A DNA stretch of 37,161 nucleotides from a virus. The translations under genes were made by a program, and so were the position numbers. Below the pieces are notes generated by a model. It ran no database searches and was not told the origin of the DNA. It saw only the letters and a program-made list of their open reading frames with translations. Below are positions 4,298 through 37,161 of this stretch, piece after piece (position 1 is the stretch's first letter; every line of letters starts with the position of its first letter). Where the stretch lies: the UHGV virus genome UHGV-0110762. One strand, 5' to 3'.

Positions 4298-4669
4298 TCA
4301 CTGAGCCGCTTTAAGCTTTCCATCCACCGCGCCGGTGATCCCGAATAGTTGCCCCTGATCTTCCTGCAGTATGGTGAGCTTCCCGCCTTTGTTGACCCAC
4401 ATAGGGGTTTCGGTTGTGTCCTCTTCGGAGGCTTTACCACGAGGTGTCGGGGTGCTGTAGTTCAGCTTGTGCTTGATCTTCACGCGCTTCTCTTCAACGG
4501 AATTACCCATGCGCTCAAAATCAAAGGTGAGGACTACTTTGCCTTTGTTGCCGTTGTTCAGAACGCCAAGCGCGGTGGTATTAAGTGCTGCCGCGATTTT
4601 GTTCATGAACACGCCGGCATCCAGTTCGCCAAGAAAATCTGGCACTACGGTCATGCGGTCATTACTCAT
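4298..4669 (-). CDS. YfdP-like hypothetical protein; ORF track extends to 4855 but the ATG at 4669 (MSNDRMTVV) with GAGGGT RBS is preferred
   Basis: C-terminal 124 aa look protein-like; the N-terminal extension in the ORF track is Cys/Trp/Gly-rich and lacks an RBS. Confidence 0.55.
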   Translation of the reverse strand: MSNDRMTVVPDFLGELDAGVFMNKIAAALNTTALGVLNNGNKGKVVLTFDFERMGNSVEEKRVKIKHKLNYSTPTPRGKASEEDTTETPMWVNKGGKLTILQEDQGQLFGITGAVDGKLKAAQ

Positions 4670-7700: not shown

Positions 7701-8556
7701 ATTAACCGGCTACGTATGGGATGGTTGCGCAGCGTCGGGCATGAAGTTGTCCAGTGTTGCGATCATGGCTCGCCTTGCTGACTTCAGCAGCGATGAAGGT
7801 GTGTGCTGGCCGTCAATTGAAACTATTGCTCGCCAGCTTGGCGCAGGCCCGAGCACTATCAGAACGGCAATCGCAAAGCTTGAAAAAGATGGCTGGCTCA
7901 CACGTACACAGCGCCGTAATGGTAACCGTAATGCTTCGAACGTGTATCGGCTGAATGTGGCGAAACTTCAGACTGCCGCATTTTCTCAACTGTCAGATTC
8001 TGACACGTCAAAATCTGACGCATCAAAATTTGACGCCTCAAAAACTGACCCGTCGAAATCTGGCAAAAACGATGGTTTTGACCCGTCAGAATCTGGCGGG
8101 GATCCGTCAGTAAAATCAAAACAAGATCCACAAGTAACTTCAAAACCCTCTTGTCCGGTTGCGGCGCAACCCGACCCTGAGGTTGTGATTACTGATCAGG
8201 CCAGACAGGTCTTGTCTTACCTGAACCAGACAACTGGCTCACGCTACCAGGTATGCAGTACGTCGCTGGAGAATATTCGCGCCCGTCTTCGGGAACAATT
8301 CACGGTTGATGACCTGTGCCTGGTAGTGGATTACAAAAATGCCGATTGGCGTGATAGCGAGCAGGCGCAATACCTCCGCCCGGCAACTCTGTTCATTCCA
8401 AAAAACTTCCCTGGTTACCTGCAAAGCGCGACCAAATGGTCCAGTGCTGGCCGGCCTGAACGCGTTAACGGCAAATGGGAGACTAACTCAGCCAGCCGCG
8501 CAAACTTCCAGAGTGTTGATTACTCACTGCCAGAAAATTCGGGGTTCCGTTCATGA
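7690..8556 (+). CDS. Replication initiator, lambda O-like (N-terminal HTH origin-binding domain, low-complexity linker, conserved C-terminal domain)
   Basis: N-terminus SVAIMARLADFSSDEGVCWPSIETIARQLGAGPSTIRTAIAKLEKDGWL is a typical phage replication-protein HTH; contains tandem DNA iterons inside the coding region as lambda O does. Confidence 0.7.
   Translation: MSTKLTGYVWDGCAASGMKLSSVAIMARLADFSSDEGVCWPSIETIARQLGAGPSTIRTAIAKLEKDGWLTRTQRRNGNRNASNVYRLNVAKLQTAAFSQLSDSDTSKSDASKFDASKTDPSKSGKNDGFDPSESGGDPSVKSKQDPQVTSKPSCPVAAQPDPEVVITDQARQVLSYLNQTTGSRYQVCSTSLENIRARLREQFTVDDLCLVVDYKNADWRDSEQAQYLRPATLFIPKNFPGYLQSATKWSSAGRPERVNGKWETNSASRANFQSVDYSLPENSGFRS
7992..8118. repeat. Iteron array (candidate phage origin): five tandem 15-bp repeats of the GTCARAATCTGAC type (7992-8064) plus two degenerate copies (8084-8096, 8106-8118)
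   Basis: Direct repeats gtcagattctgac / gtcaaaatctgac / atcaaaatttgac / ctcaaaaactgac / gtcgaaatctggc at a 15-bp period; each unit has inverted ends (GTCAG...CTGAC); they encode the repetitive SDTSKSDASKFDASKTDPSKSG peptide. Confidence 0.55.
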
Positions 8557-9872
8557 TGACCAATAAATATTGCCAGGTGCTGGCGGCACTGCGTAGCAAA
8601 CCAGCTCACGAATTGAAAGAAGTTGGCGATCAGTGGCGGACACCGGATCTGCTTTTTTGGGGGATCAACGCGCTATTTGGTCCATTAGTTCTGGACTTGT
8701 TTGCTGACGACGACAACGCGAAGTGCCCAGCATGGTACACCGCCGAAGATAACGCGCTGACACAGCACTGGTCTGAACGTCTGGCAGAACTGGGCGGCGC
8801 TGGTTATGGCAACCCTCCGTATAGCCGTTCGCAGTACCACGAGAAGCAGGCGATCACCGGCATGACGCATATCATGAACTACGCAGCAGCCCAGCGCGAG
8901 AAGGGCGGTCGCTATGTATTCCTGATAAAAGCCGCGCCGAGTGAAACGTGGTGGCCAGAAGATGCCGATCACATTGTATTCATTCGTGGTCGTATTGGGT
9001 TCGATCTGCCTGTGTGGTTTGTACCTGCTGACGAAAAACAGAAACCCACCAGCGCGTTTTTTGCCGGTGCCATAGCTGTATTCGATAAGTCGTGGCGTGG
9101 TGAGCGGTTCAGCTATATCAACCGCACAGAACTGGAGGCAAAAGGGCGGGCGTTTATGACTTTGGCGCAATTTGCTGCCAGCAAGTCTCAACCTGCAACT
9201 GCCACACCTCCTGCAGCTGATAAGCCAGAAGCTGAGTTGCCACTCACTCAGAAAGATATTTTTGATGTCAGCGGCGTCGAGGCGTGGGCATGCGTTAGAG
9301 CTGCGTTTGGCGATAAAGAAGAATACACATTCAGTGAATCGAAGTTTGGGCATACCTGGGCGGCGGATTCTGTTGAAGCACCGGAATTCACTCAGGTATC
9401 ACCATTAACGATCGACAAAGCGAAGCTGCTTATTCGTGAGAGTATTTTGTTCGGTGTGGATGAGTGGTTGTTGTCGATTGAATTCGATGACGCTGCAGTG
9501 CGCCTGGATATGTCGGAACGTATTCGCACTGTTGCCCTTGAAGCATCCGGTGAATATGGCATGAACAGCACTGATTTCATTGCAGCCATGGGAAGCCTGG
9601 ATGTTTCCAGATGGTCCAATATTCGCCAGATCCGCATGCACATCCGTGAGAAAGCTAAACCAGTAGCGGATCCGCTTCCCGAGTCCCGTATCTGGCCACT
9701 GGAGGTTGGGATTGTGTTCAACCAGGTAGATGGCGCTGACATGTTGGATGAATCACAGCAGAACAAGCTGAAAGCCAACATCAATCAACTCTGGCTGGAA
9801 CGAACGGCCACCAGCGAAATCATTACTGCCGCTTCTGAACTTGTTCGCAATATGCGGGGAGAGGCCGCGTGA
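8553..9872 (+). CDS. Phage Dam-family N6-adenine DNA methyltransferase fused to a roughly 225-aa C-terminal domain of unknown function
   Basis: N-terminal about 215 aa carry the phage Dam family pattern (WRTPDLLF...LDLFADDDNAKC..YTAEDNAL...GNPPYS); ORF continues uninterrupted for a further 225 aa; ATGA overlap with the O-like gene. Confidence 0.65.
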   Translation: MMTNKYCQVLAALRSKPAHELKEVGDQWRTPDLLFWGINALFGPLVLDLFADDDNAKCPAWYTAEDNALTQHWSERLAELGGAGYGNPPYSRSQYHEKQAITGMTHIMNYAAAQREKGGRYVFLIKAAPSETWWPEDADHIVFIRGRIGFDLPVWFVPADEKQKPTSAFFAGAIAVFDKSWRGERFSYINRTELEAKGRAFMTLAQFAASKSQPATATPPAADKPEAELPLTQKDIFDVSGVEAWACVRAAFGDKEEYTFSESKFGHTWAADSVEAPEFTQVSPLTIDKAKLLIRESILFGVDEWLLSIEFDDAAVRLDMSERIRTVALEASGEYGMNSTDFIAAMGSLDVSRWSNIRQIRMHIREKAKPVADPLPESRIWPLEVGIVFNQVDGADMLDESQQNKLKANINQLWLERTATSEIITAASELVRNMRGEAA

Positions 9873-10268: not shown

Positions 10269-10952
10269 ATGAGCCAATTAGCAACAACAGCATTAACCAT
10301 GTCCAGCAGCGATATTGCTGAGCTGGTGGAATCACGACATGACCATGTTAAACGGTCCATTGAACGCCTGGCAGAGCGCGGTGTTATTGAACTCCCCCCA
10401 ATGGGGGAAGTTAAAAATCACCTCAATCAGTCGGTATCGGTTTATCTGATAGGGAAGCGGGACAGTTATATCGTTGTCGCGCAGCTGTCGCCGGAGTTTA
10501 CCGCGCGTCTGGTTGATCGCTGGCAGGAGCTTGAGCAGGCACAGCAGCAGACGATTCCTCAATCATTCTCTGAAGCCCTACGTCTTGCAGCTGACCTTGC
10601 AGAACAAAAACAACAGTTGACTAACGAACTGGCTGCCGCTGCGCCGAAGGTAGCGTTTGTTGATCGGTACTGTACAGCCAGTGGGTCAATGTCATTCCGC
10701 CAGGTGGCAAAACTGCTTAAGGCCAAAGAGCCAGATCTGCGGTTATTCCTCCTTGAGAACGACATCATGTATCGCCTTGGCGGAACGATGACCCCACGGC
10801 ATCAGCATATTGATGCGGGCCGTTTTGAAATGAAAACCGGCACATCCGTAACCTCAAATCATGCATTCAGCCAGGCACGTTTCACGGCGAAAGGCGTGCG
10901 CTGGATTGGTGGACTGTGGGCAGAACACATTGCCAGGGGGCAGGTCGCGTGA
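10269..10952 (+). CDS. Antirepressor-like protein (Rha N-terminal domain plus KilA-C/ANT C-terminal domain)
   Basis: ATG 10269 preceded by GGAGAA; N-terminal SSDIAELVESRHDHVKRSIERL Rha-like; C-terminal FRQVAKLL...LENDIMYR.GG ANT-like. Confidence 0.65.
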   Translation: MSQLATTALTMSSSDIAELVESRHDHVKRSIERLAERGVIELPPMGEVKNHLNQSVSVYLIGKRDSYIVVAQLSPEFTARLVDRWQELEQAQQQTIPQSFSEALRLAADLAEQKQQLTNELAAAAPKVAFVDRYCTASGSMSFRQVAKLLKAKEPDLRLFLLENDIMYRLGGTMTPRHQHIDAGRFEMKTGTSVTSNHAFSQARFTAKGVRWIGGLWAEHIARGQVA

Positions 10953-11944
10953 GAGCTCTGCTTACCCCCGAGATCGCCCATCGTATGGGGATTGTGCTGT
11001 TCCGTCCCGGTACGGAACTGATGCACCTCTTCATGCGTGGTCGCGTTCTGCTCGAGCCTGAACCAGAAGAAATGGCGTCATTCAGTACCGGGGCTGTTCC
11101 GGCAGCCATTCAGCCGCTAGCTGATGATCCGGTAATGCGTCAGGTCTTCGAGAATGAGAGGGTTATTCAGCGTGCCGGTGGGCTTCCTTCCCTTGAGCAA
11201 TGGTTGAGTAATCGGTTTGAATGCCAGTGGCCACATTCAACGTGGCACGACAAGAACTTCACAACAATGCGGCACCCACCAGGAAGTATTCGCCTGTGCT
11301 GGCATTGCGATCACACTTTGTCGGGGCAGCATACCGAACAGCTTGCAGGTATAGCGGCCGGAAACCTGGTATCCTGGATTCTGGAAGTCATTCGGCGTGA
11401 TTCTGGTTTTCCCGAGTCGCATATCCTGACGCTTCCTGAACTGTGCTGGTGGATGGTCAGAAACGACCTGGCTGATGTTATTCCGGAAAGCGTTGCGCAC
11501 AAAGGGTTGCGCCTTCCGGATGAGAAGATCCGTTCTGTCATGAGGGAAAGCGACATAGTGCCTTCCTCGTCAGCAACCAGACTTGTGCAGGAGAAGGCGA
11601 AGAAGATCCTCACGCTCTCTGTTGATCCGGAGTCGCCAGAGTCTTTTATGCTCAGGCCAAAACGTCGCCGCTGGATAAATGAGACGTACACCCGCTGGGT
11701 TAAAACACAACCCTGTGAGTGTTGCCGACGGCCAGCAGATGATCCGCACCATATCGTAGGGCACGGTATGGGTGGTACAGCAACAAAAGCCCATGACCTC
11801 TTCGTGATCCCTCTGTGCAGAGAGTGCCACGACGAGTTACACGCCGATGTACCAGCATTCGAGCAGAAGCATGGTACGCAGCTTGAGCTGCTACTGCGTT
11901 TTATGGATCGGGCGCTGGCGATCGGCGTAATTGCGAAAGCTTAA
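10949..11944 (+). CDS. DUF968-like protein with C-terminal HNH-like zinc finger (YdfU-like)
   Basis: GTG 10949 overlaps the upstream stop (GTGA); C-terminus CECCRRPADDPHHIVGHGMGG...CRECHDELH. Confidence 0.55.
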   Translation: MRALLTPEIAHRMGIVLFRPGTELMHLFMRGRVLLEPEPEEMASFSTGAVPAAIQPLADDPVMRQVFENERVIQRAGGLPSLEQWLSNRFECQWPHSTWHDKNFTTMRHPPGSIRLCWHCDHTLSGQHTEQLAGIAAGNLVSWILEVIRRDSGFPESHILTLPELCWWMVRNDLADVIPESVAHKGLRLPDEKIRSVMRESDIVPSSSATRLVQEKAKKILTLSVDPESPESFMLRPKRRRWINETYTRWVKTQPCECCRRPADDPHHIVGHGMGGTATKAHDLFVIPLCRECHDELHADVPAFEQKHGTQLELLLRFMDRALAIGVIAKA

Positions 11945-11960
11945 GAAGTATGGAGACCGT

Positions 11961-12791
11961 ATGAATCTGGACAATGTTTTAAAGTTTTTTGCGCCTAAAG
12001 GCATGCACATATCAGATACCAGTAGAGCGACAGCCAGTGAACAACTGACGGTTACTGATGTAATGGCTGCATTGGGGATGACTCAGGCCGATGCGGGGAT
12101 CGGGCTGGCAATGTTTTTAGGTAAAGCTGGTATCAGCAGCCAGGACAGAGAGGCGTCAATAACCTGGCTAACTGAGTACGCGAAAGAGCATGCGCCCATG
12201 GCCATTCGCAAAGCATCAGGGAAAAAGTTTCCCCTCTGCATGCGTATCCTTGCCCGGTTTGCCTATAACGATTATTCCTCATCAGCAGCTGATTGTGTGG
12301 CATGCCCAAAATGTAGTGGTAAAGGGTTGCTTACAACCACTAAAACCGTGACTAAAAGCCATTACACAATGCGATTGCCACAATGGGCAAAAGACCTGAG
12401 ACAGTCACCATCTGACTTTGAGGTAAAGCGAGAAGTAACTGACTCCGAGCAAAGTTTATGTTCGCGATGCCATGGTACCGGAAAGTTAAGTAAGCGATGC
12501 CAGTGTGGCGGAACTGGCAAGACGGTTGACCGTAAAGCGACAGAACTGCAGGGCGTACCAGTTTACAAAGAATGTAAGCGCTGCGAAGGGCGGGGATACA
12601 GCAGGCCAAAATCATCGGTTGCCTATCGAGGTGTTTTTTCTGAGTTGCCGAGTCTGCCTGACCGAACGTGGCGTTATAGCTGGAAACCATTCTATGAAAG
12701 CCTGGTGACCAAATGTTTCCAGGAGGAGAGTTATTCAAGCTCTCAACTGAATCGGGTGACTAAAAGTGAAGATGTGATAAATATCGCGTAA
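11961..12791 (+). CDS. Putative late-gene antiterminator (Q-like by position) with four DnaJ-type CxxCxGxG zinc-finger repeats
   Basis: ATG 11961 with GGAGA RBS; CPKCSGKG, CSRCHGTGK, CQCGGTGK, CKRCEGRG repeats; lies directly upstream of a strong promoter plus short-transcript terminator and the lysis genes, the position of lambda Q. Confidence 0.45.
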   Translation: MNLDNVLKFFAPKGMHISDTSRATASEQLTVTDVMAALGMTQADAGIGLAMFLGKAGISSQDREASITWLTEYAKEHAPMAIRKASGKKFPLCMRILARFAYNDYSSSAADCVACPKCSGKGLLTTTKTVTKSHYTMRLPQWAKDLRQSPSDFEVKREVTDSEQSLCSRCHGTGKLSKRCQCGGTGKTVDRKATELQGVPVYKECKRCEGRGYSRPKSSVAYRGVFSELPSLPDRTWRYSWKPFYESLVTKCFQEESYSSSQLNRVTKSEDVINIA

Positions 12792-29609: not shown

Positions 29610-30070
29610 TGGCTGATATTTTCTACCCTAAAGAATTACCGATCCCATTAAAAGATGGTTTTGGGCTCGAGCCCATAAGTCCTTTTCTTCGTACCAAATT
29701 AACCTCAGGCCGTTCCAGGCAACGCCGAATTTATAGCTCGGTTCCTACGCAAGCGAGCGTGAAATGGTCATTTAAGAGAGATAATGAAGCCCAGTTATTT
29801 GAGGCATGGTTTCGGGACGCTCTTACAGATGGTGTTGCCTGGTTTTATATGCGCCTTAAAACTCCTTTGGGGATTCAACCTTATAAGTGTCGTTTTGTAG
29901 ATATTTATCAGGGCCCAATTTTGGCAAGCGGTAAATTCTGGCAATTTACCGCAACGCTGGAATTGTGGGAACGGCCACTATTGCCGCCAGGTTGGGGATT
30001 ATTTCCCGAGATGGTGGCTGGTTCTGACATTATCGATCTGGCGCTGAATAAGGAGTGGCCCGAAGCATGA
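29609..30070 (+). CDS. Minor tail (tail tip) protein, in the gpM position
   Basis: TAATG overlap with H; 153 aa; assignment by position, sequence not obviously lambda M-like. Confidence 0.55.
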   Translation: MADIFYPKELPIPLKDGFGLEPISPFLRTKLTSGRSRQRRIYSSVPTQASVKWSFKRDNEAQLFEAWFRDALTDGVAWFYMRLKTPLGIQPYKCRFVDIYQGPILASGKFWQFTATLELWERPLLPPGWGLFPEMVAGSDIIDLALNKEWPEA

Positions 30071-30555
30071 CCAGTGCGGTTCTCAACCGGCTTTACGCAT
30101 CCGGTGGTGATGAGGTCATCCTGGACACGCTACAAATCACCGTTGGTGGTCAGGATTACTGGCTGACCCGCGGATGGGATGACATAACTGTTACCCTGGA
30201 AACGGGCAGCGAGGCGACATTCACCGGTTCTGCCATTGATGTGGCGCTGCCAGCGCGCAACGCCGACGGCACGCAGGATCTAAAATTCGCCATCAGCAAT
30301 ATCGACGGCATTGTATCAACGGCGATCCGTAATGCGCTCGACAATTTGAGCAATGCATCACTGACCTTTCGACGGTACGTCTCCACCGATCTGTCAGCAC
30401 CCGCAGCTCCCCCGTTCACCCTCGCGATTAAAGAGGGTTCCTGGACAGCAACGGAGGTGCAGATCACCGCCGGCTACATGAACATTCTCGATACGTCATG
30501 GCCGCGCTACCGTTACACGCTGCCGGACTTCCCGGGACTTCGTTACCTGCAGTAG
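30067..30555 (+). CDS. Minor tail (tail tip) protein, in the gpL position
   Basis: ATG 30067 with AAGGAG RBS and ATGA overlap; assignment by position. Confidence 0.5.
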   Translation: MTSAVLNRLYASGGDEVILDTLQITVGGQDYWLTRGWDDITVTLETGSEATFTGSAIDVALPARNADGTQDLKFAISNIDGIVSTAIRNALDNLSNASLTFRRYVSTDLSAPAAPPFTLAIKEGSWTATEVQITAGYMNILDTSWPRYRYTLPDFPGLRYLQ

Positions 30556-30564
30556 GAAATCATT

Positions 30565-31119
30565 ATGGCTAAATACAATACCGGAAATCCGCTGCCGTCA
30601 GAGAATCCTCGTAATATCCACCATGAATGTCACGACCAGCCTGATCTCATCACACGAGCAGAGGAAGAAAAGAGATTAAGGAGCCGAATGGTGAGCTTAT
30701 CAAACGCCTCAAAAATGAATTCATCCTCCAGAGAAGGTCGGTTTAATCCTGAAAAATACCTCTCGGTTACATGGCAGATGGGCGGCCGCGATTACCCGGT
30801 TCTCGACTGTTATGGCGTAATTCATGAGGTGAGGCGCGATCTAGGTCTGCCGGACTGGCCTGTTTTTGAGGGTGTTATTAACGAAGGCTCTCAGATGAAT
30901 GACACCTGCAACGGCTTCCTCAGCAGTATCGAAAAATGCGAGCCAGAAGAGGGTGCGGTAGCGGCGTGTTATACCGCGGGACTAGTAACGCATCTGGGAA
31001 TCGCCGTCACCGTTAATGGCGCTTTGCACGTCCTCGAGGCTAACCCTAAACGCAACGTGACCATATTACCTCTGGCCCGATTTCTCCGGCAGTACGTCAA
31101 AGTGGAGTTCTATAAGTGA
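30565..31119 (+). CDS. Tail tip assembly protein with NlpC/P60-like Cys-His peptidase motifs (gpK-like)
   Basis: VLDCYGVIHEV ... HLGIAV ... GALHVLEAN pattern; position between tail tip proteins and the J-like gene. Confidence 0.55.
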   Translation: MAKYNTGNPLPSENPRNIHHECHDQPDLITRAEEEKRLRSRMVSLSNASKMNSSSREGRFNPEKYLSVTWQMGGRDYPVLDCYGVIHEVRRDLGLPDWPVFEGVINEGSQMNDTCNGFLSSIEKCEPEEGAVAACYTAGLVTHLGIAVTVNGALHVLEANPKRNVTILPLARFLRQYVKVEFYK

Positions 31120-34100
31120 CGATCCGAATTTATCCCTCCCGAATCGAAGGCGAACCGCTGGAGTCGCATCAGCACGCCAGCACCACCATTGCCGACTGGT
31201 TCACCAGAAACGTGCAGGGCTGGCAGCCTGACATGACCCACCCGGTGGCGCTGGAGTTGAATGGTGTGTCTATCCCTCCGAATGAGTGGAGTGCGCAGAT
31301 TATCGCACCGGATGATGATGTACGCCTGTATCCCGTTCCGTTTGGCCCGGCGGCGCCAGCCTGGCTGGTCTGGACGGCAGTGGCAATAGCCGTCGCCTCT
31401 GCCGCCTACTCCATCTACATGATGAGCACCATGCAGACCGGCGGCGCCAGCCAGCCCGGCAACGGGGATCAACTCGAGCTCAACCCTGCAAAGGCCAATA
31501 TGGCAAAACTGGGCGATCCCATCCGGGAGATATTTGGTCGCTATAAGGTGTGGCCGGATTACGTCGTCCAGCCGGTTTCGCGCTTCGATTCCGCCGATCC
31601 CAAAAAATACGTGACCAGCATGTTTTTATGCGTGGGGGTGGGCGACATGGCACTGCCCGCGTCGGCGATACGCATTGGCTCCACGCCAGCATCCGCGTTC
31701 GGCAGTGATGTCAGCGCCACCATCTATCCACCGGGTGCCAGCGTTGCGGCCGATAGTCGTTCCGAGAACTGGTTCAACAGCGGCGAGGTGGGGAATACCA
31801 CTTCGGGTACCGCAGGCCTCGACCTCGGCTCAACCGGCCCGCAGACGGTCAGTATCATCTCTGATGCCATTCTGGTGAGCGGTAACACTCTTTCCCTGAT
31901 TGCGGCCACGGCCAGCGACGGTGAAACGGAGATCCCGGCGGCCTGGGTTGTTGGCACAGTAATCACGGTAGTAGCACCAAACTCCTACCGGGTTGCCAAT
32001 GCCGGCGGGTACAGCGTGATTTATGGTGATGTTGCTGAGCTACGGCCAGCTGCAGGCATGCCTGTCTCGGTGACGTTTAATGAGTCGGCTTATGATCTGT
32101 ATATCGCCAGTTACGCAGCAGGCGTTCCGGCGGTGCCCGGGGTGGGTGGTTCGACAGCGAGCATTACCGCCAGCGCCGCGCCCACCACGTACGATTTCAC
32201 GGCAACGCCGGTTACGTTCACGATCGGCTGGAAAGGCACGACGTATGCTATCTCACTCATTACCAGTTACGTCACGATGTCCGGACTGGTTAATACCATA
32301 TCAAACCAGCTCACCGGTTCCGGCCTGATCGCGCGCGATACTGGTGGCCGGCTGCAGATTGCCGAGGAAAGCAGCCCGTTTGCCGGGGGGGCCATCAGTC
32401 ACAGCGCTCTTCCGGTCTCCGTATTCGGCAGCGCTACGGTAGATGTTACCGGGGTGGCCTCGACGGGCGGTACCGCGGCGGTTGAGGCAAATATCACGCT
32501 GGCGTATGACAGTGCGACAGGCAAGCCTTTCACCGGCATCCCTGATGGCGTACAGCGGATCGGTATCGGCTATGCCGACGGCCAGTTCCGCATTACCGAT
32601 ATTGATGATCAGACCATCACGGTTGAGCGGGTGGTCGTCACCCAGGACACCAGTGGTAATGATGTTGTCACCGTGGACCCGACCTGGCCGGGGTTCACCG
32701 AGCGTACGCTGCTCGATGCCCAGGTCACCGGCGTGAATGATGATTACGCCTGGCTGGGGCCCTTCCTTGCCTGTCCGGACGGAGAAACCACGACTGCCAT
32801 CGAGAATAACTTCATTTTCCCCAATGGCCACATCCAGTACAAAAAGAACGGAGATCCCCAGTCGCACACCGTGCGGGTTCTGGTTCAGTACCGCAATGCC
32901 GCCTCTGCGGGAGCCTGGTCGCAGGTGGTTTATAACTTCACCAACAAAACCGCAGATGGCCACGGTTATACCCGGCGCATCAGCGGGCTGGCGGCAGCAC
33001 AGTATGAAGTCCGCGTGCGGCGCACGACAAAAATTGGCGGCGCAAGGACGGTGAACAATCTTTACTGGCAGGCGATGCGCTCGCGGTTAAGCAGACGCCC
33101 GGGGAGCTATGCCGGTGTGACGACCCTTGCGATGACGGTACGGACCGGTAACCGCCTGGCGGCCCAGTCCGATCGCCGCGTTAACGTCACTCCCACACGG
33201 CTATATAACGGACACGCTTCGCGCAGTATCAGCGGGGCGCTGTATCACGTTCTGGAATCTCTGGGTTTCCGCCCTGAGCAAATTGACCGCGCAGCGATTG
33301 ACGCCCTCGAGCAGACCTGGTGGACCCCTCGCGGGGAAACGTTCGACTGGGCCACCGGTGACAGTAAGTCGGCACTCGAGGTGCTGAAAATTATTACCGG
33401 CGCAGGGATGGGGTATTTCCTGCTGTCAGATGGACTGGTATCCGCCGGGCGGGAGGGCGTGAAAAACTGGACCGGAATGATCACCCCTCAGGAGACTACT
33501 GAAGAGCTTCAGACCGCGTTCAAGGCACCGAGCCAGGACGATTATGACGGCGTGGATGTGACGTATATCAACGGCACGACCTGGGCAGAAGAAACCGTAC
33601 AGTGCCGTCAGCCCGGAAACTCCACGCCAGTGAAGGTGGAAGACTACAGGCTGGAAGGGGTTGTGGATCAGGATCGGGCGTACCGTATTGGCATGCGCCG
33701 CTTGCGCGGATACCAGCTCCAGCGCCTGCAGCATACGACCAGTACGGAGATGGACGCGCTCTGCTACCAGTTTATGGACCGCATCATCCTCACTGATGAT
33801 ATTCCCGGTAACCAGACACTGAGCTGCCTCATCACTGAAATGAGCTGGGACAGCACAGCGATCATCATGTCGGTCAGCGAGCCGCCGGACTGGAGTTTTC
33901 CAAATCCGCGGGTGGTGATCCGCCACCAGGACGGACGGGCGTCGCCGCTACAGGTTCCGACGCGCATCGATGATTACACCCTGCGTATTCCATACAGCGC
34001 CGCGCTGGCACCGGAAGAATGGGAGATGGACAGTCCGTACATTGAGCCGCCGCGCCTGCTGTTCTGTTCGTCATCCCGTGTCGGGTATGACGCGCTGGTT

Positions 34101-34208
34101 GGCGAGATTTCTCCCGGAGGTGATGGGACCAGCAGTATTTCAGCCATTCAGTACCATCCCGATAAATATAAGTACGATGACGCCAGCTACCCCGGCGATG
34201 TCTCCTGA
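31116..34208 (+). CDS. Central tail fibre / host specificity protein (J-like), with an N-terminal region resembling a fused gpI-like segment
   Basis: 1030 aa, GTGA overlap with upstream gene; N-terminal about 100 aa contain a hydrophobic stretch (AAPAWLVWTAVAIAVASAAYSIYMM) as in lambda gpI; no separate I-like gene present. Confidence 0.75.
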   Translation: MTIRIYPSRIEGEPLESHQHASTTIADWFTRNVQGWQPDMTHPVALELNGVSIPPNEWSAQIIAPDDDVRLYPVPFGPAAPAWLVWTAVAIAVASAAYSIYMMSTMQTGGASQPGNGDQLELNPAKANMAKLGDPIREIFGRYKVWPDYVVQPVSRFDSADPKKYVTSMFLCVGVGDMALPASAIRIGSTPASAFGSDVSATIYPPGASVAADSRSENWFNSGEVGNTTSGTAGLDLGSTGPQTVSIISDAILVSGNTLSLIAATASDGETEIPAAWVVGTVITVVAPNSYRVANAGGYSVIYGDVAELRPAAGMPVSVTFNESAYDLYIASYAAGVPAVPGVGGSTASITASAAPTTYDFTATPVTFTIGWKGTTYAISLITSYVTMSGLVNTISNQLTGSGLIARDTGGRLQIAEESSPFAGGAISHSALPVSVFGSATVDVTGVASTGGTAAVEANITLAYDSATGKPFTGIPDGVQRIGIGYADGQFRITDIDDQTITVERVVVTQDTSGNDVVTVDPTWPGFTERTLLDAQVTGVNDDYAWLGPFLACPDGETTTAIENNFIFPNGHIQYKKNGDPQSHTVRVLVQYRNAASAGAWSQVVYNFTNKTADGHGYTRRISGLAAAQYEVRVRRTTKIGGARTVNNLYWQAMRSRLSRRPGSYAGVTTLAMTVRTGNRLAAQSDRRVNVTPTRLYNGHASRSISGALYHVLESLGFRPEQIDRAAIDALEQTWWTPRGETFDWATGDSKSALEVLKIITGAGMGYFLLSDGLVSAGREGVKNWTGMITPQETTEELQTAFKAPSQDDYDGVDVTYINGTTWAEETVQCRQPGNSTPVKVEDYRLEGVVDQDRAYRIGMRRLRGYQLQRLQHTTSTEMDALCYQFMDRIILTDDIPGNQTLSCLITEMSWDSTAIIMSVSEPPDWSFPNPRVVIRHQDGRASPLQVPTRIDDYTLRIPYSAALAPEEWEMDSPYIEPPRLLFCSSSRVGYDALVGEISPGGDGTSSISAIQYHPDKYKYDDASYPGDVS

Positions 34209-34227
34209 AAACACCCTTAATTGCATA

Positions 34228-34249
34228 ACCCGCTCCGGCGGGTTTTTTT
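34228..34249 (+). terminator. Rho-independent terminator between J-like gene and tail spike gene
   Basis: ACCCGC-TCCG-GCGGGT hairpin followed by TTTTTTT. Confidence 0.6.
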
Positions 34250-34265
34250 ATGCTGGAGAAATACA

Positions 34266-36629
34266 ATGGCACCATGCAACACTCTTAACCCGCCGGGTTC
34301 AACTGACCCACGCGATTTACGTGATAACGCTCAGAACCTGGATCAGGCGGTAAATGGAATTACCAACAAAACATGGACCGACAGGCTGGGTCGGATACGT
34401 AAATCGTGGAGTGGAATGGAATATGACTTCAATAATCAGATAGCTGATCAGGAAACGCGATTTCGCACCTTTATTGAAAATGCGGGCTATGACGTAATTG
34501 GAGATTATGAAGACGGCATAATTACTGTCTCTGAATACAATGAGCTGATTCGTTATGACGGTGAATTCTATAAGCTGTCTGCTGGTACCAAACCACCTTA
34601 TAAAACAGCCGGGACAACAAAAACTTCGTGGGATACAACTGACTCTTCCCATTTTGTCTCCGTAGGCGATGCCTCTCTTCGGCAGTTAATTCTCAGTGCT
34701 GCGGCACCATTATTTCAGGGACATATTAAAACCCTGGATTACTGGGCAGCAAAAATGCATGCCGGAGAGACGGTTATTATTACCAGCATAGCCGATTCGA
34801 CCGGTGATGGTAATGGCTCCACGGGGTGGACGGCAAACCCCACCACGCCTGTAACTGGCTTCCCGTGGGCCACTGCACCTCTGGCCAACAGTGACCATAA
34901 CGCAGAAGCGCCCAATGCATGGTGTGCCAGACTGCAGACAATCCTTCGGCAGTACCATCGTAACAACAACATTAGCGTTTATAACGCTGGGTATTCCGGC
35001 CAGCAAATGCAGAACGGCTGGGTAAATTATTACTTTGATAAAATCGTCCTGCAAAACCCCTATATTCCTTCTAACCCGGATATCGTGATCATCAGCTTCG
35101 GGCTGAACGATATTACAGACGCAGGAAATAAAATCACCGAGCATATCGCGCAAACAATCGAGGTCATGAAGAAGGTTATCGCAGCCGGCGCCACACCCGT
35201 ACTAACGACCTGCGATGCAAACTGGCGCTCCTACAACGGCTGGAACTCTGGTACTTCCGGGCGTGACAATGAAGAAGCTGCAGCCCAGATCGATGCCGCG
35301 AAAAAATACATGGCGGAGGTGCTGGGGGTGTCCATTATCGATCAGGACTTCATGCAAAAAACATGGATGTCCAAAAACAGCGATTACTCCAACCAGTATG
35401 AACTCCAGCCTGACGGCCTGCACTGGGGGGACGTTGGCCATGCGATGAAAGCGTCCTTTGTCGCTCAGTCGTTTATGCCTGACATTCTTCGCTGCTACGG
35501 TACTGATATTGAGCGTATCTGCTGGATGGACAGCCGGATGCGATATTCGAAGGACTACAATTCCAGCTGGGTTCCTGATACGGGGTCGGAGGGATATAAA
35601 TACTCGCGGTTCCCGCGGATCTGGTACATCCAGGCCGCAGACTATGTGGCGAGCGAGGTTATCTTTGACTTCTTCGTGTGGAGCGAGGGTAATCAGGATT
35701 CCCTGATATACCGCAATTTTGGCAACAGCAATATTGGATCTACATATGCAGCCGACCAGCTGCCGCGCGTGAGGGTCTTTTCACTCGGTAACTCTTCCGC
35801 CTATTACGATAAAGAGCTTCCGGACACCGGAGAGAACGAAGCAGCCATCAACGCGACAGACCGTCCATTCTATCTTACCAAGTTGAAATACGGGCTTAAC
35901 CGTATCCAGGTGATCGCGCCATCGGCGACAGTTCTCGGGGCATTCTGGGGCGGCTGGTTTGAGTTCAATCCGTTCTGGAAGGCCAGGGACACCTTTGGCT
36001 ACGTGAACAACTACGGCGCGCCAAATTATATTCAGGTGAATGCGCTGGAGAAAACCGGGCCTCTCGATTTCCGCTTCGAGGCGGATGCCACAAATAACCG
36101 CGTGGCGTTCATGAATCCTGAGATGTTTGACGGCACAAACTGCGCTGATATTGGACAGGTAGGTGACAAAGTTGAAATCCTGGTTGAGGGCTTCTTCGAC
36201 ACGGATACGGGTTTTCTTTTCTTTGGCGGGAAGTCCCTCAACCGAAACTCGGGAGCTGCAGATAATTATCAGGAGGATAATTGCCTGCTTTTGTATGCCA
36301 CGTCGAAAACATTTAACCTGCTACAGCTGCGCTATCCATACCAGGGTTCCGCTCCCTATCCTCAGATCCAGGCCGGGATAGACGATGTTTATAGTCCCAC
36401 CGATAGGGCAAGAAAGTTCCTCATCCGCTGCGAAAAAACCTCGCCTACAACTCAGACCGTTAAGGTCTACGACGGGTGGGAGACTATCGACACCCCTGTC
36501 CTGAACTATACGGGAGACTGGACGCAGGGGAAGTTCTGCGGCGGTGGGATTATTGGCGGAGTTTACGCAACGAGAAACATTGCCAGGACGGTGCGGATCA
36601 CTCAGTTGTTGATTCGTAAATTCAAATAA
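34266..36629 (+). CDS. Tail spike / side tail fibre with SGNH (GDSL-like) hydrolase domain, probable receptor-modifying esterase
   Basis: ATG 34266 after GGAGA; conserved tail-fibre N-terminus (NTLNPPGSTDPRDLRDNAQNLDQAVNGI); central IADSTGDG (block I-like) and ISFGLNDITD (GxND block) consistent with SGNH esterases. Confidence 0.65.
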   Translation: MAPCNTLNPPGSTDPRDLRDNAQNLDQAVNGITNKTWTDRLGRIRKSWSGMEYDFNNQIADQETRFRTFIENAGYDVIGDYEDGIITVSEYNELIRYDGEFYKLSAGTKPPYKTAGTTKTSWDTTDSSHFVSVGDASLRQLILSAAAPLFQGHIKTLDYWAAKMHAGETVIITSIADSTGDGNGSTGWTANPTTPVTGFPWATAPLANSDHNAEAPNAWCARLQTILRQYHRNNNISVYNAGYSGQQMQNGWVNYYFDKIVLQNPYIPSNPDIVIISFGLNDITDAGNKITEHIAQTIEVMKKVIAAGATPVLTTCDANWRSYNGWNSGTSGRDNEEAAAQIDAAKKYMAEVLGVSIIDQDFMQKTWMSKNSDYSNQYELQPDGLHWGDVGHAMKASFVAQSFMPDILRCYGTDIERICWMDSRMRYSKDYNSSWVPDTGSEGYKYSRFPRIWYIQAADYVASEVIFDFFVWSEGNQDSLIYRNFGNSNIGSTYAADQLPRVRVFSLGNSSAYYDKELPDTGENEAAINATDRPFYLTKLKYGLNRIQVIAPSATVLGAFWGGWFEFNPFWKARDTFGYVNNYGAPNYIQVNALEKTGPLDFRFEADATNNRVAFMNPEMFDGTNCADIGQVGDKVEILVEGFFDTDTGFLFFGGKSLNRNSGAADNYQEDNCLLLYATSKTFNLLQLRYPYQGSAPYPQIQAGIDDVYSPTDRARKFLIRCEKTSPTTQTVKVYDGWETIDTPVLNYTGDWTQGKFCGGGIIGGVYATRNIARTVRITQLLIRKFK

Positions 36630-36685
36630 CCCCCGGTGGCGTAGATTGATAGGTGTCGCCTCATTGATCTGCAACCCCTTTAAAA

Positions 36686-36705
36686 CTACTGTATATAAAA
36701 ACAGT
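36686..36705 (+). promoter_or_regulatory. LexA (SOS) box TACTGTATATAAAAACAGTG
   Basis: Matches the LexA consensus CTGT-N8-ACAG; lies 16 nt upstream of the umuD-like start codon. Confidence 0.7.
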
Positions 36706-36721
36706 GAAAGGAGTGCAGATC

Positions 36722-37111
36722 ATGGGCTTTCCTTCACCTGCTGCAGATTATGTTGAAACACGAATCTCCCTCGATCAGCAGTTAATCAGCCAGCCCGCAG
36801 CGACTTATTTCATGCGTGCATCGCGTTCACATTTCAGGGAAGGGATAATTCAGGGGGCGCTGCTTGTTGTTGATGCCTCACTTTCAGCCTGTGATGGCTC
36901 GCTGCTGATATGTGCGATAGACGGGGAATTCAGGATCAAGCGATATCGGACTCATCCTCAACCCCACCTGGTTAATCTGGAGAACGGGAGAAGGGAGGCG
37001 TTGCCAGTAGATGATGACGGTTACAGTTCTGCACCCGCTATATTCGGGGTGATCACGTACATCATTAATGATGCCAGGAACGCGGAGTTTGATGACTGCC
37101 CGGTGATGTGA
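36722..37111 (+). CDS. umuD: UmuD-like protein (S24 family, error-prone polymerase V accessory subunit) beginning at the position of the UmuD' cleavage product
   Basis: ATG 36722 lies 8 nt after AAGGAG; MGFPSPAADYVE...ATYF...LLVVD...DGEF.IKR matches E. coli UmuD from Gly25 onward as recalled; no coding capacity for the N-terminal arm. Confidence 0.75.
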   Translation: MGFPSPAADYVETRISLDQQLISQPAATYFMRASRSHFREGIIQGALLVVDASLSACDGSLLICAIDGEFRIKRYRTHPQPHLVNLENGRREALPVDDDGYSSAPAIFGVITYIINDARNAEFDDCPVM

Positions 37112-37161
37112 ATAGTTGAAACTTTACGGTAAAGTCGATGTTTTGTGTCGGGGTTTTTCCC

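Follow-up and report, generated by a model that had tools for sequence, protein, structure and literature searches.

What does the last virion gene of a temperate siphovirus contribute to infection, and how is it expressed when a terminator-like hairpin stands in front of it? Both questions are posed by a tail spike gene in the UHGV virus genome UHGV-0110762, a stretch of 37,161 nucleotides that we refer to as the window. Judging from its gene content, the window is a lambdoid prophage, apparently of the E. coli lambdoid siphovirus type. The spike gene is its last virion gene; it follows the tape-measure, minor-tail and TipJ-like tail-tip genes, and only a UmuD'-like gene lies 3' of it (Table 1). 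We propose, with a probability of about 80%, that the gene product is a receptor-binding side tail spike of the type represented by gp63.1 of phage G7C, which combines an adaptor, an SGNH esterase and a lectin-like part and probably deacetylates an O-acetylated surface polysaccharide. Such a protein would be the most likely determinant of the strains that the prophage can infect.

The central part of the spike is an SGNH hydrolase domain, as a preliminary description had noted from its block motifs. In a comparison of the spike protein with Pfam, the families PF13472 (E 2.6e-11, 44.8 bits against a curated cut-off of 32.9) and PF00657 (E 1.5e-7, 32.3 bits against a cut-off of 23.6) were recovered, and the GDSL/SGNH matches span residues 177-394. 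Four blocks can be read in this region: A176-D177-S178 (block I), N240-A-G242-Y-S-G245 (block II), G279-L-N281-D282 (block III) and D383-G-L-H386 (block V). Among 30 SGNH-bearing homologues with 21-96% identity, the residues D177, S178, G242, S244, G245, G279, N281, D282, D383 and H386 are invariant. Here, S178 would be the nucleophile, G242 and N281 would form the oxyanion hole, and D383 and H386 would serve as the acid/base pair. An AlphaFold2 (AF2) model of the monomer, built from the alignment of the 30 homologues, reached a predicted local distance difference test score (pLDDT) of mostly 85-95 over most of residues 155-787; residues 1-151 were modelled poorly. In the model, the domain shows a three-layer alpha/beta/alpha fold, and Foldseek matched it to TesA, Axe2, the CEX esterase and others with template modelling (TM) scores of ~0.75-0.80 normalised to the target. 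Structure prediction had been put forward earlier as a check of the catalytic triad; S178, D383 and H386 are present, and the predicted fold agrees with that of SGNH esterases.

The closest characterised structure is that of gp63.1. A Foldseek search of the PDB returned gp63.1 of G7C as the best match (4QNL; E 2.4e-21, 709 aligned columns, TM 0.55/0.52), followed by the gp48/49 spike of Shigella phage B2 (9D84, E 1.1e-15) and then by generic SGNH esterases. When the profile of the spike family was compared with gp63.1 in hhalign, residues 170-555 aligned with residues 268-653 at 98.4% probability (E 8e-15). In this register, S178 corresponds to the serine of the GDS motif of gp63.1 (S276), and the blocks SG, GxND and D..H likewise coincide. 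In a profile hmmsearch of all PDB sequences, 4QNL again ranked first (E 5.7e-7), and the alignment matched the GDS, SG and GxND blocks. A single-sequence phmmer search of the PDB with the spike yielded nothing at E <= 10, so that gp63.1 is reached by family-profile and structure searches only. The homology is not confined to the SGNH core but includes the beta-sandwich domains of the C-terminal part, and the spike gene, as read from its sequence, encodes a putative N-terminal attachment module and lies among the tail genes. The spike is a gp63.1-type esterase tail spike on a siphovirus adaptor; this type of protein is well known, and the locus introduces neither a new mechanism nor a new protein class.

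According to PMC10743462, which cites Prokhorov et al. 2017, gp63.1 deacetylates the E. coli 4s O-antigen with the backbone left intact, is probably processive and is essential for infection. This O-antigen O-acetyl esterase, whose substrate is known, belongs to an N4-like podovirus and docks on gp66 via a different N-terminus, whereas the window spike is encoded directly after TipJ in the genome of a temperate siphovirus. Related activities have been described for further phages. The spikes of the Shigella phages Moo19 (gp82) and B2 hydrolyse p-nitrophenyl acetate, and infection depends on O-antigen modifications (PMC11654681). The spike of the Pectobacterium phage PP99, which we recovered as a BFVD match (E 1.7e-23), deacetylates O-polysaccharide, as cited in PMC10743462. 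Unlike the window spike, these three belong to virulent podoviruses; their sequence relationship to it is distant, and their attachment modules differ. A temperate parallel is provided by the receptor-binding proteins of Klebsiella pneumoniae prophages (for example 164_08-KL2 and 174_38-KL55). Here, SGNH is among the commonest enzymatic domains, two proteins are proven esterases, and the frequent, modular fibres or spikes that carry the domain have been proposed to act by deacetylation over depolymerisation (PMC13123978). These proteins, to which we liken the spike by description, differ in their host; the window spike comes from E. coli or Enterobacter. In the tail spike of epsilon15, the SGNH petal is an O-acetyl esterase that deacetylates galactose (bioRxiv 10.64898/2026.07.31.742079). 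However, epsilon15 gp20 combines a beta-helix endorhamnosidase with the C-terminal esterase petal, whereas the window spike has no beta-helix and the esterase is its sole enzyme. Esterase spikes are a documented, if sparsely characterised, alternative to depolymerases, and no characterised close relative of the window spike was found in the searched literature.

In an exhaustive HMMER search with residues 140-787 against 1.84 billion cluster representatives, 265 clusters matched at a threshold of E <= 1e-3, and 95 still did so at E <= 1e-30. Most of the matches listed are 600-1000 residues long, and most carry the module at or towards the C-terminal end. In NCBI and UniRef, near-identical proteins go by the name 'SGNH/GDSL hydrolase family protein' or 'tail fiber/spike domain-containing protein'; the former is also the name that NCBI gives within the 90% identity cluster of the spike. 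An identical protein is found on four public contigs, and one of these, locus L003, lies in E. coli chromosomal context. A megablast search of the spike gene against 50,697 phage records gave no match, and tblastn of the spike returned distant partial matches only. A first scan of the GTDB species-representative genomes for the spike found nothing; a second scan, with an alignment as query, found distant relatives only (23-32% identity) in Rhizobium, Gilliamella, Paracoccus and others. NCBIfam contained no meaningful match for the spike.

How is the esterase carried on the virion? Residues 4-146 of the spike match several PHROG families, three of which are annotated as tail fibre or tail protein, the best being phrog_17635 (residues 4-135). 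About 50 database proteins have only this adaptor in common with the spike and join it to pectate-lyase-like, beta-helix or endosialidase-chaperone domains. Residues 1-149 are 52% identical to an E. coli 'tail fiber domain-containing protein' (P0044), the rest of which is unrelated, and the adaptor is 31-36% identical to the N-termini of tail fibres or spikes in Klebsiella phages of ~46-48 kilobases. The PHROG matches, the proteins that share only the adaptor and the P0044 protein bear out the earlier claim of a conserved, attachment-type N-terminus. From the place of the gene after TipJ genes, we infer that the spike is attached to the tail tip via this adaptor.

In BLASTP alignments, the adaptor ends at a sharp boundary at residue ~139/140 (VSVGDASLRQ/LILSAAAPLF). 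Beyond it, residues 140-787 are 91% identical to 886-residue E. coli proteins, whose first 230 residues are 77-79% identical to the spike N-termini of epsilon15-type Salmonella phages such as SPN1S and PAT1. Residues 140-787 are also 77% identical to a protein that bears the P22 head-binding domain. The esterase and C-terminal module of the window is found on the N-termini of both the epsilon15-type (SPN1S-like) and the P22-type spikes, and further N-termini in the family are of the TSP1/gp66 type, the T7-fibre type and the tail-collar type. As judged from the model, residues 406-787 adopt lectin-like folds of carbohydrate-binding types and probably hold the polysaccharide. The locus is a clean natural case of modularity at three levels, namely adaptor, esterase and lectin-like domain.

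A comparison of the gene among otherwise similar prophages, which the preliminary description had called for, revealed the same slot with exchanged C-terminal modules. In five complete E. coli genomes (L005-L009), a TipJ gene 67-89% identical to that of the window is followed by the same hairpin and then by a spike whose adaptor is 38-60% identical. The C-terminal part of these spikes is wholly different from that of the window, and one of them belongs to an unrelated SGNH lineage. The J gene of L005 shows 89% identity, but the C-terminal modules of its spike are unrelated; in the IMG/VR contig L018 the TipJ/J gene is 73% identical, whereas the spike is 96-99% identical. The sliding nucleotide identity with L019 is ~70% in TipJ, rises abruptly to 96% at ~34190, at the terminator, and is lost at ~36640, just past the stop codon. 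The breakpoints lie at ~34100-34190 and ~36600-36650. The GC content changes along with the pieces, from 58-61% in TipJ to that of the adaptor (Table 1) and ~50-53% in the remainder. An internal exchange is visible in comparison with L004, which is ~100% identical over 33890-35315, 72-88% identical over 35316-36440 and 97-99% identical over the last ~60 codons. Window positions 35316-36440, which correspond to L004 11051-12175, represent an allele swap within the lectin-like region, with ~100% identity on the side of the esterase domain.

These comparisons directly support that the segment which begins at the terminator and ends shortly after the stop codon is an exchangeable cassette, with internal exchange points at residue ~140 and in the beta-sandwich region. 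The preliminary description had anticipated such a recombination cassette from the sequence of the gene, and the identity jump at the terminator and the loss of identity after the stop codon agree with it. The mosaic pattern also lends support to its second suggestion, that the gene defines host range. The mapped exchange borders are useful for the engineering of receptor-binding proteins and for the prediction of host range from prophage sequence.

The spike of unrelated SGNH lineage is that of L006 (E. coli PCP06021, 4563-6680), a second SGNH/GDSL spike behind a similar TipJ gene. Its adaptor is 52% identical over residues 1-139, and at E <= 1e-5 tblastn detected no similarity to the esterase module of the window. 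The adaptor has therefore acquired SGNH enzymes on more than one occasion. The annotated start of the L006 gene (4473) overlaps TipJ, and the ATG near 4563 is probably correct.

The left border of the cassette coincides with the hairpin, which leads to the question of expression. The TipJ-like gene and the spike gene are 57 nucleotides apart, and in this gap the hairpin begins 19 nucleotides 3' of the upstream TGA (34206-34208). It consists of a stem of seven base pairs (34227-34233/34238-34244, five of them GC), a loop of four nucleotides (TCCG) and a run of seven T residues at 34243-34249. The folding energy of -16 kcal/mol (z = -3.55) was equalled by 0 of 200 shuffled sequences. The hairpin and T tract recur at the TipJ-spike junction in the five complete E. 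coli genomes L005-L009 and in the Logan contig L004. Five IMG/VR contigs also have the hairpin 5' of the spike, at the TipJ-spike junction in L018-L020 and L024 and without a TipJ match in L022. Three versions of the stem occur across the related loci (ACCCGC/GCGGGT, CCCGGC/GCCGGG and CCCGCC/GGCGGG), so that the structure is kept and the sequence replaced. The element is therefore an intergenic, GC-rich stem-loop on the sense strand that is followed by a U tract and conserved in relatives, as is characteristic of an intrinsic terminator. As a class, such sites give no support: the surrounding 7-kilobase region contains 10 terminator-like sites against 5.6 +/- 2.4 expected by chance, which is no enrichment. 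The case for a terminator at 34227-34249 is made by position and conservation and not by the number of sites.

Does the hairpin make the spike gene a transcription unit of its own? The T tract is separated from the ATG by only 16 nucleotides. A scan of 30000-37161 found no promoter-like site on the + strand upstream of the spike gene; the sole + strand site, at 36004-36032, lies within the gene. The scan was limited to sigma-70 consensus sites, which weakens the case against a separate promoter. The prophage also encodes a Q-type late antiterminator. In lambdoid phages, Q carries late transcription from the Q-dependent promoter through intrinsic terminators. Because of the 16-nucleotide space, the lack of a promoter-like signal in the scan and the encoded Q protein, the spike is most likely made by antiterminated read-through of the late operon during lytic growth. 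In this scenario, Q-modified RNA polymerase would read from the late promoter past the hairpin into the spike gene, which would be expressed only then, and in the lysogen the hairpin would block stray transcription that is not antiterminated. Apart from insulating the cassette in the lysogen, the conserved terminator may act as its fixed left border of exchange.

Alternatively, the late tail operon could stop at the hairpin, with the spike transcribed independently from its own promoter, either of a non-consensus type or overlapping the end of the TipJ gene. The strength and conservation of the hairpin and T tract and the coincidence of the cassette border with the hairpin speak for this arrangement, as does the restriction of the scan to the sigma-70 consensus. 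We nonetheless regard it as unlikely, given the short distance from the T tract to the ATG, the absence of a + strand promoter-like site 5' of the gene within the scanned region, the antiterminator encoded by the phage and the need of a virion part to be co-produced with the other tail proteins. The preliminary description had termed the gene separately terminated. This holds insofar as a conserved hairpin precedes the gene, but a separate transcription unit is not what the lack of promoter room and signal and the presence of Q point to.

The hairpin also bears on where the gene begins. The reading frame lies on the + strand, and from the ATG at 34266 to the stop codon at 36627-36629 it encodes 787 residues. 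The start at 34228 noted earlier falls in the hairpin and is not the start of coding. The list of open reading frames gives TTG 34221 as the mechanical start; this candidate was rejected, as it lies inside the hairpin/terminator region, has no ribosome-binding site and is unconserved in related loci. Since a GGAG motif lies seven nucleotides upstream of ATG 34266, the ATG is kept in seven related loci and the TTG falls within the hairpin region, the ATG is almost certainly the true start. A purine-rich GGAG/GAGG motif occurs at the equivalent place in related loci, and the last tail gene has its own ribosome-binding site, as had been stated. Nothing supports the minus-strand open reading frames of 111, 147 and 117 residues within the spike gene.

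What would the spike do at the cell surface? We propose that the adaptor docks the spike, likely as a trimer, on the TipJ-type tail tip. The lectin-like beta-sandwiches would then hold the O-acetylated host polysaccharide, either O-antigen or capsule, and the S178/H386/D383 triad would strip the O-acetyl groups without cutting the backbone. The virion would bind reversibly and move through the glycan layer to the outer membrane, where the TipJ tip would act; in this way, the spike would set the host range. The preliminary description had left open whether the enzyme deacetylates or cleaves surface polysaccharide. By analogy with gp63.1, to which it is homologous, deacetylation is the expected activity, and neither Pfam nor Foldseek detected a glycosidase, lyase or beta-helix fold anywhere in the spike protein, which argues against cleavage.

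Several observations weigh against this proposal. Identity to gp63.1 amounts to 13-15% in structural alignments and 24% over the hhalign columns, and the substrate and regiochemistry of gp63.1 are therefore not transferable to the spike. Block I reads ADS and not GDS in the spike and its nearest relatives, which is probably harmless. The support for docking on TipJ consists of gene order and co-variation only, the adaptor having been modelled at a pLDDT of 36-62. Finally, the one lysogen that was typed, E. coli 980-2, has no acetyltransferase annotation between galF and gnd in its rfb cluster (L027 18368-28419). This strain carries O1-family wzx/wzy and a P22-type spike with an esterase module 88-90% identical to that of the window. 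The lack of an acetyltransferase in rfb disfavours the strain's own O-antigen as the acetylated substrate, though acetylation genes can lie elsewhere.

The latter finding raises the possibility that the target is a conserved acetylated glycan, either enterobacterial common antigen or colanic acid, and that the spike is a broad tool against a 'key polysaccharide' and not specific for the O- or K-antigen of a serotype. Both of these glycans are O-acetylated, and 980-2 does have wcaF in its colanic-acid cluster. A conserved target would explain why the 90% identity cluster of the spike spans E. coli, Enterobacter roggenkampii and E. cloacae, why the module is found on at least five unrelated virion adaptors and why the rfb cluster of an O1-family lysogen has no acetyltransferase. 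Modules 66-73% identical are, in addition, labelled Pseudomonas sp., and for N4-like phages the concept of a 'key polysaccharide' has been put forward (PMC10743462). However, the spike varies most in its lectin-like region, which is swapped between otherwise identical loci, as expected for serotype-specific recognition. Only a single lysogen was typed, and shared O-antigen structures could account for the span of E. coli and Enterobacter. Such structures can indeed be common to the two genera. For the characterised proteins of G7C, PP99, Moo19/B2 and the Klebsiella prophages, moreover, either action on strain-specific O- or K-antigens or a correlation with them has been described (PMC10743462, PMC11654681, PMC13123978). 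Since no part of the gene varies more than the recognition region, we keep a target other than O-antigen, be it capsule, enterobacterial common antigen or colanic acid, as a minority reading, and a conserved glycan appears rather improbable.

Less probable still is that the SGNH domain is no surface-polysaccharide deacetylase and is either a silent binding module or acts on another ester, such as the O-acetyl groups of peptidoglycan or lipid acyl chains. In favour of this reading, lipases, thioesterases and peptidoglycan esterases also belong to the superfamily, TesA and carboxylesterases are among the Foldseek matches, and block I deviates from GDS. However, all catalytic residues are invariant in 30 homologues with identities as low as 21%, which speaks against a silent domain. 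The esterase and beta-sandwich parts, moreover, find their best match, in both sequence and structure, in an O-antigen deacetylase, gp63.1, and not in a lipase; the C-terminal folds are of predicted carbohydrate-binding types, and the spike slot carries pectate-lyase-like or endosialidase-chaperone spikes in other prophages.

Table 1. Coordinates of the spike gene, its parts and associated features in the window.
Feature	Position	Strand	Description	Basis
Spike/tail fibre gene	34266..36629, stop codon included	+	787 residues	profile matches; identical protein on public contigs
Shine-Dalgarno sequence GGAG	34255..34258	+	7 nucleotides 5' of the ATG	read from sequence
N-terminal adaptor	34266..34682	+	residues 1-139, ends VSVGDASLRQ, GC 43-45%	PHROG families, shared N-termini
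SGNH/GDSL esterase domain	34728..35480	+	residues ~155-405	Pfam, invariant residues, fold matches
Catalytic codons	S178 34797-34799; G242 34989-34991; N281 35106-35108; D383 35412-35414; H386 35421-35423	+		
C-terminal beta-sandwich region	35481..36626	+	residues 406-787, like lectins or carbohydrate-binding modules; probable glycan-binding/specificity part	
Intrinsic-terminator-like hairpin	34227..34249	+	AACCCGC-TCCG-GCGGGTT and T7 tract	terminator scan, folding, conservation
TipJ-like tail-tip/host-specificity gene	31116..34208	+	1030 residues, on which the spike presumably docks	PHROG 469 tail protein, E 1e-233
Q-type late antiterminator	11931..12791	+	same prophage	PF03589 Antiterm, E 3e-46

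The wider context of the spike is that of a lambda-like phage. The prophage encodes a CI-like repressor, a Dam methylase, the Q antiterminator, a holin and a GH19 endolysin, together with lambda-like head genes, lambda-like tail-shaft genes, a tape-measure gene and minor tail genes. E. coli relatives carry the annotation 'host specificity factor TipJ family' for the gene upstream of the spike, and the identical TipJ-like product in L003 carries PF24801 (FNIII-A_GpJ). In L003, the prophage end adjoins chromosomal genes with Pfam matches to sulfatase/DUF3413, DUF1414, NA37, ribosomal L25p and YejG, a run that we take to be the yejM-yejL-yejK-rplY region of E. coli. A 95% identical copy of the spike is found in a second prophage, which has other tail-shaft genes and lies beside genes matching dacD-sbmC. 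The HNSQ2209 prophage is located in the gal/mod region, a long way from rfb.

In the early region of the window, a gene at 8553-9872 (+) encodes a 439-residue protein with an N-terminal Dam-type N6-adenine methyltransferase domain (residues 19-199) and a long C-terminal part. A DUF968/HNH-like protein is encoded just 5' of Q at 10916-11944 (+). Scans of the window for Rfam families and tRNA genes gave no matches.

The slot after the spike is variable as well. In L005 (7438-8049), L009 (7003-7881), L007 (6961-8523) and L008 (6551-7732), it is occupied by genes for acyltransferases or family-2 glycosyltransferases, probably conversion genes that modify the O-antigen. The window instead has the UmuD'-like gene (36687-37111, +), which encodes 129 residues and matches PHROG 811 ('UmuD-like') from profile position 21. 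The protein begins with MGFPSPAADY, its start falling exactly on the residue that follows Cys24/Gly25, where E. coli UmuD cleaves itself, and by eye the position of the catalytic Ser60 of UmuD reads His. It looks like a ready-made activated form, which in our view resembles HumD of phage P1; umuC was not present in the window. Positions 36687-36706 form a near-consensus LexA box, TACTGTATATAAAAACAGTG, for which chance would predict 0 matches. The UmuD'-like gene is also found 3' of the spike in L004, at another integration site.

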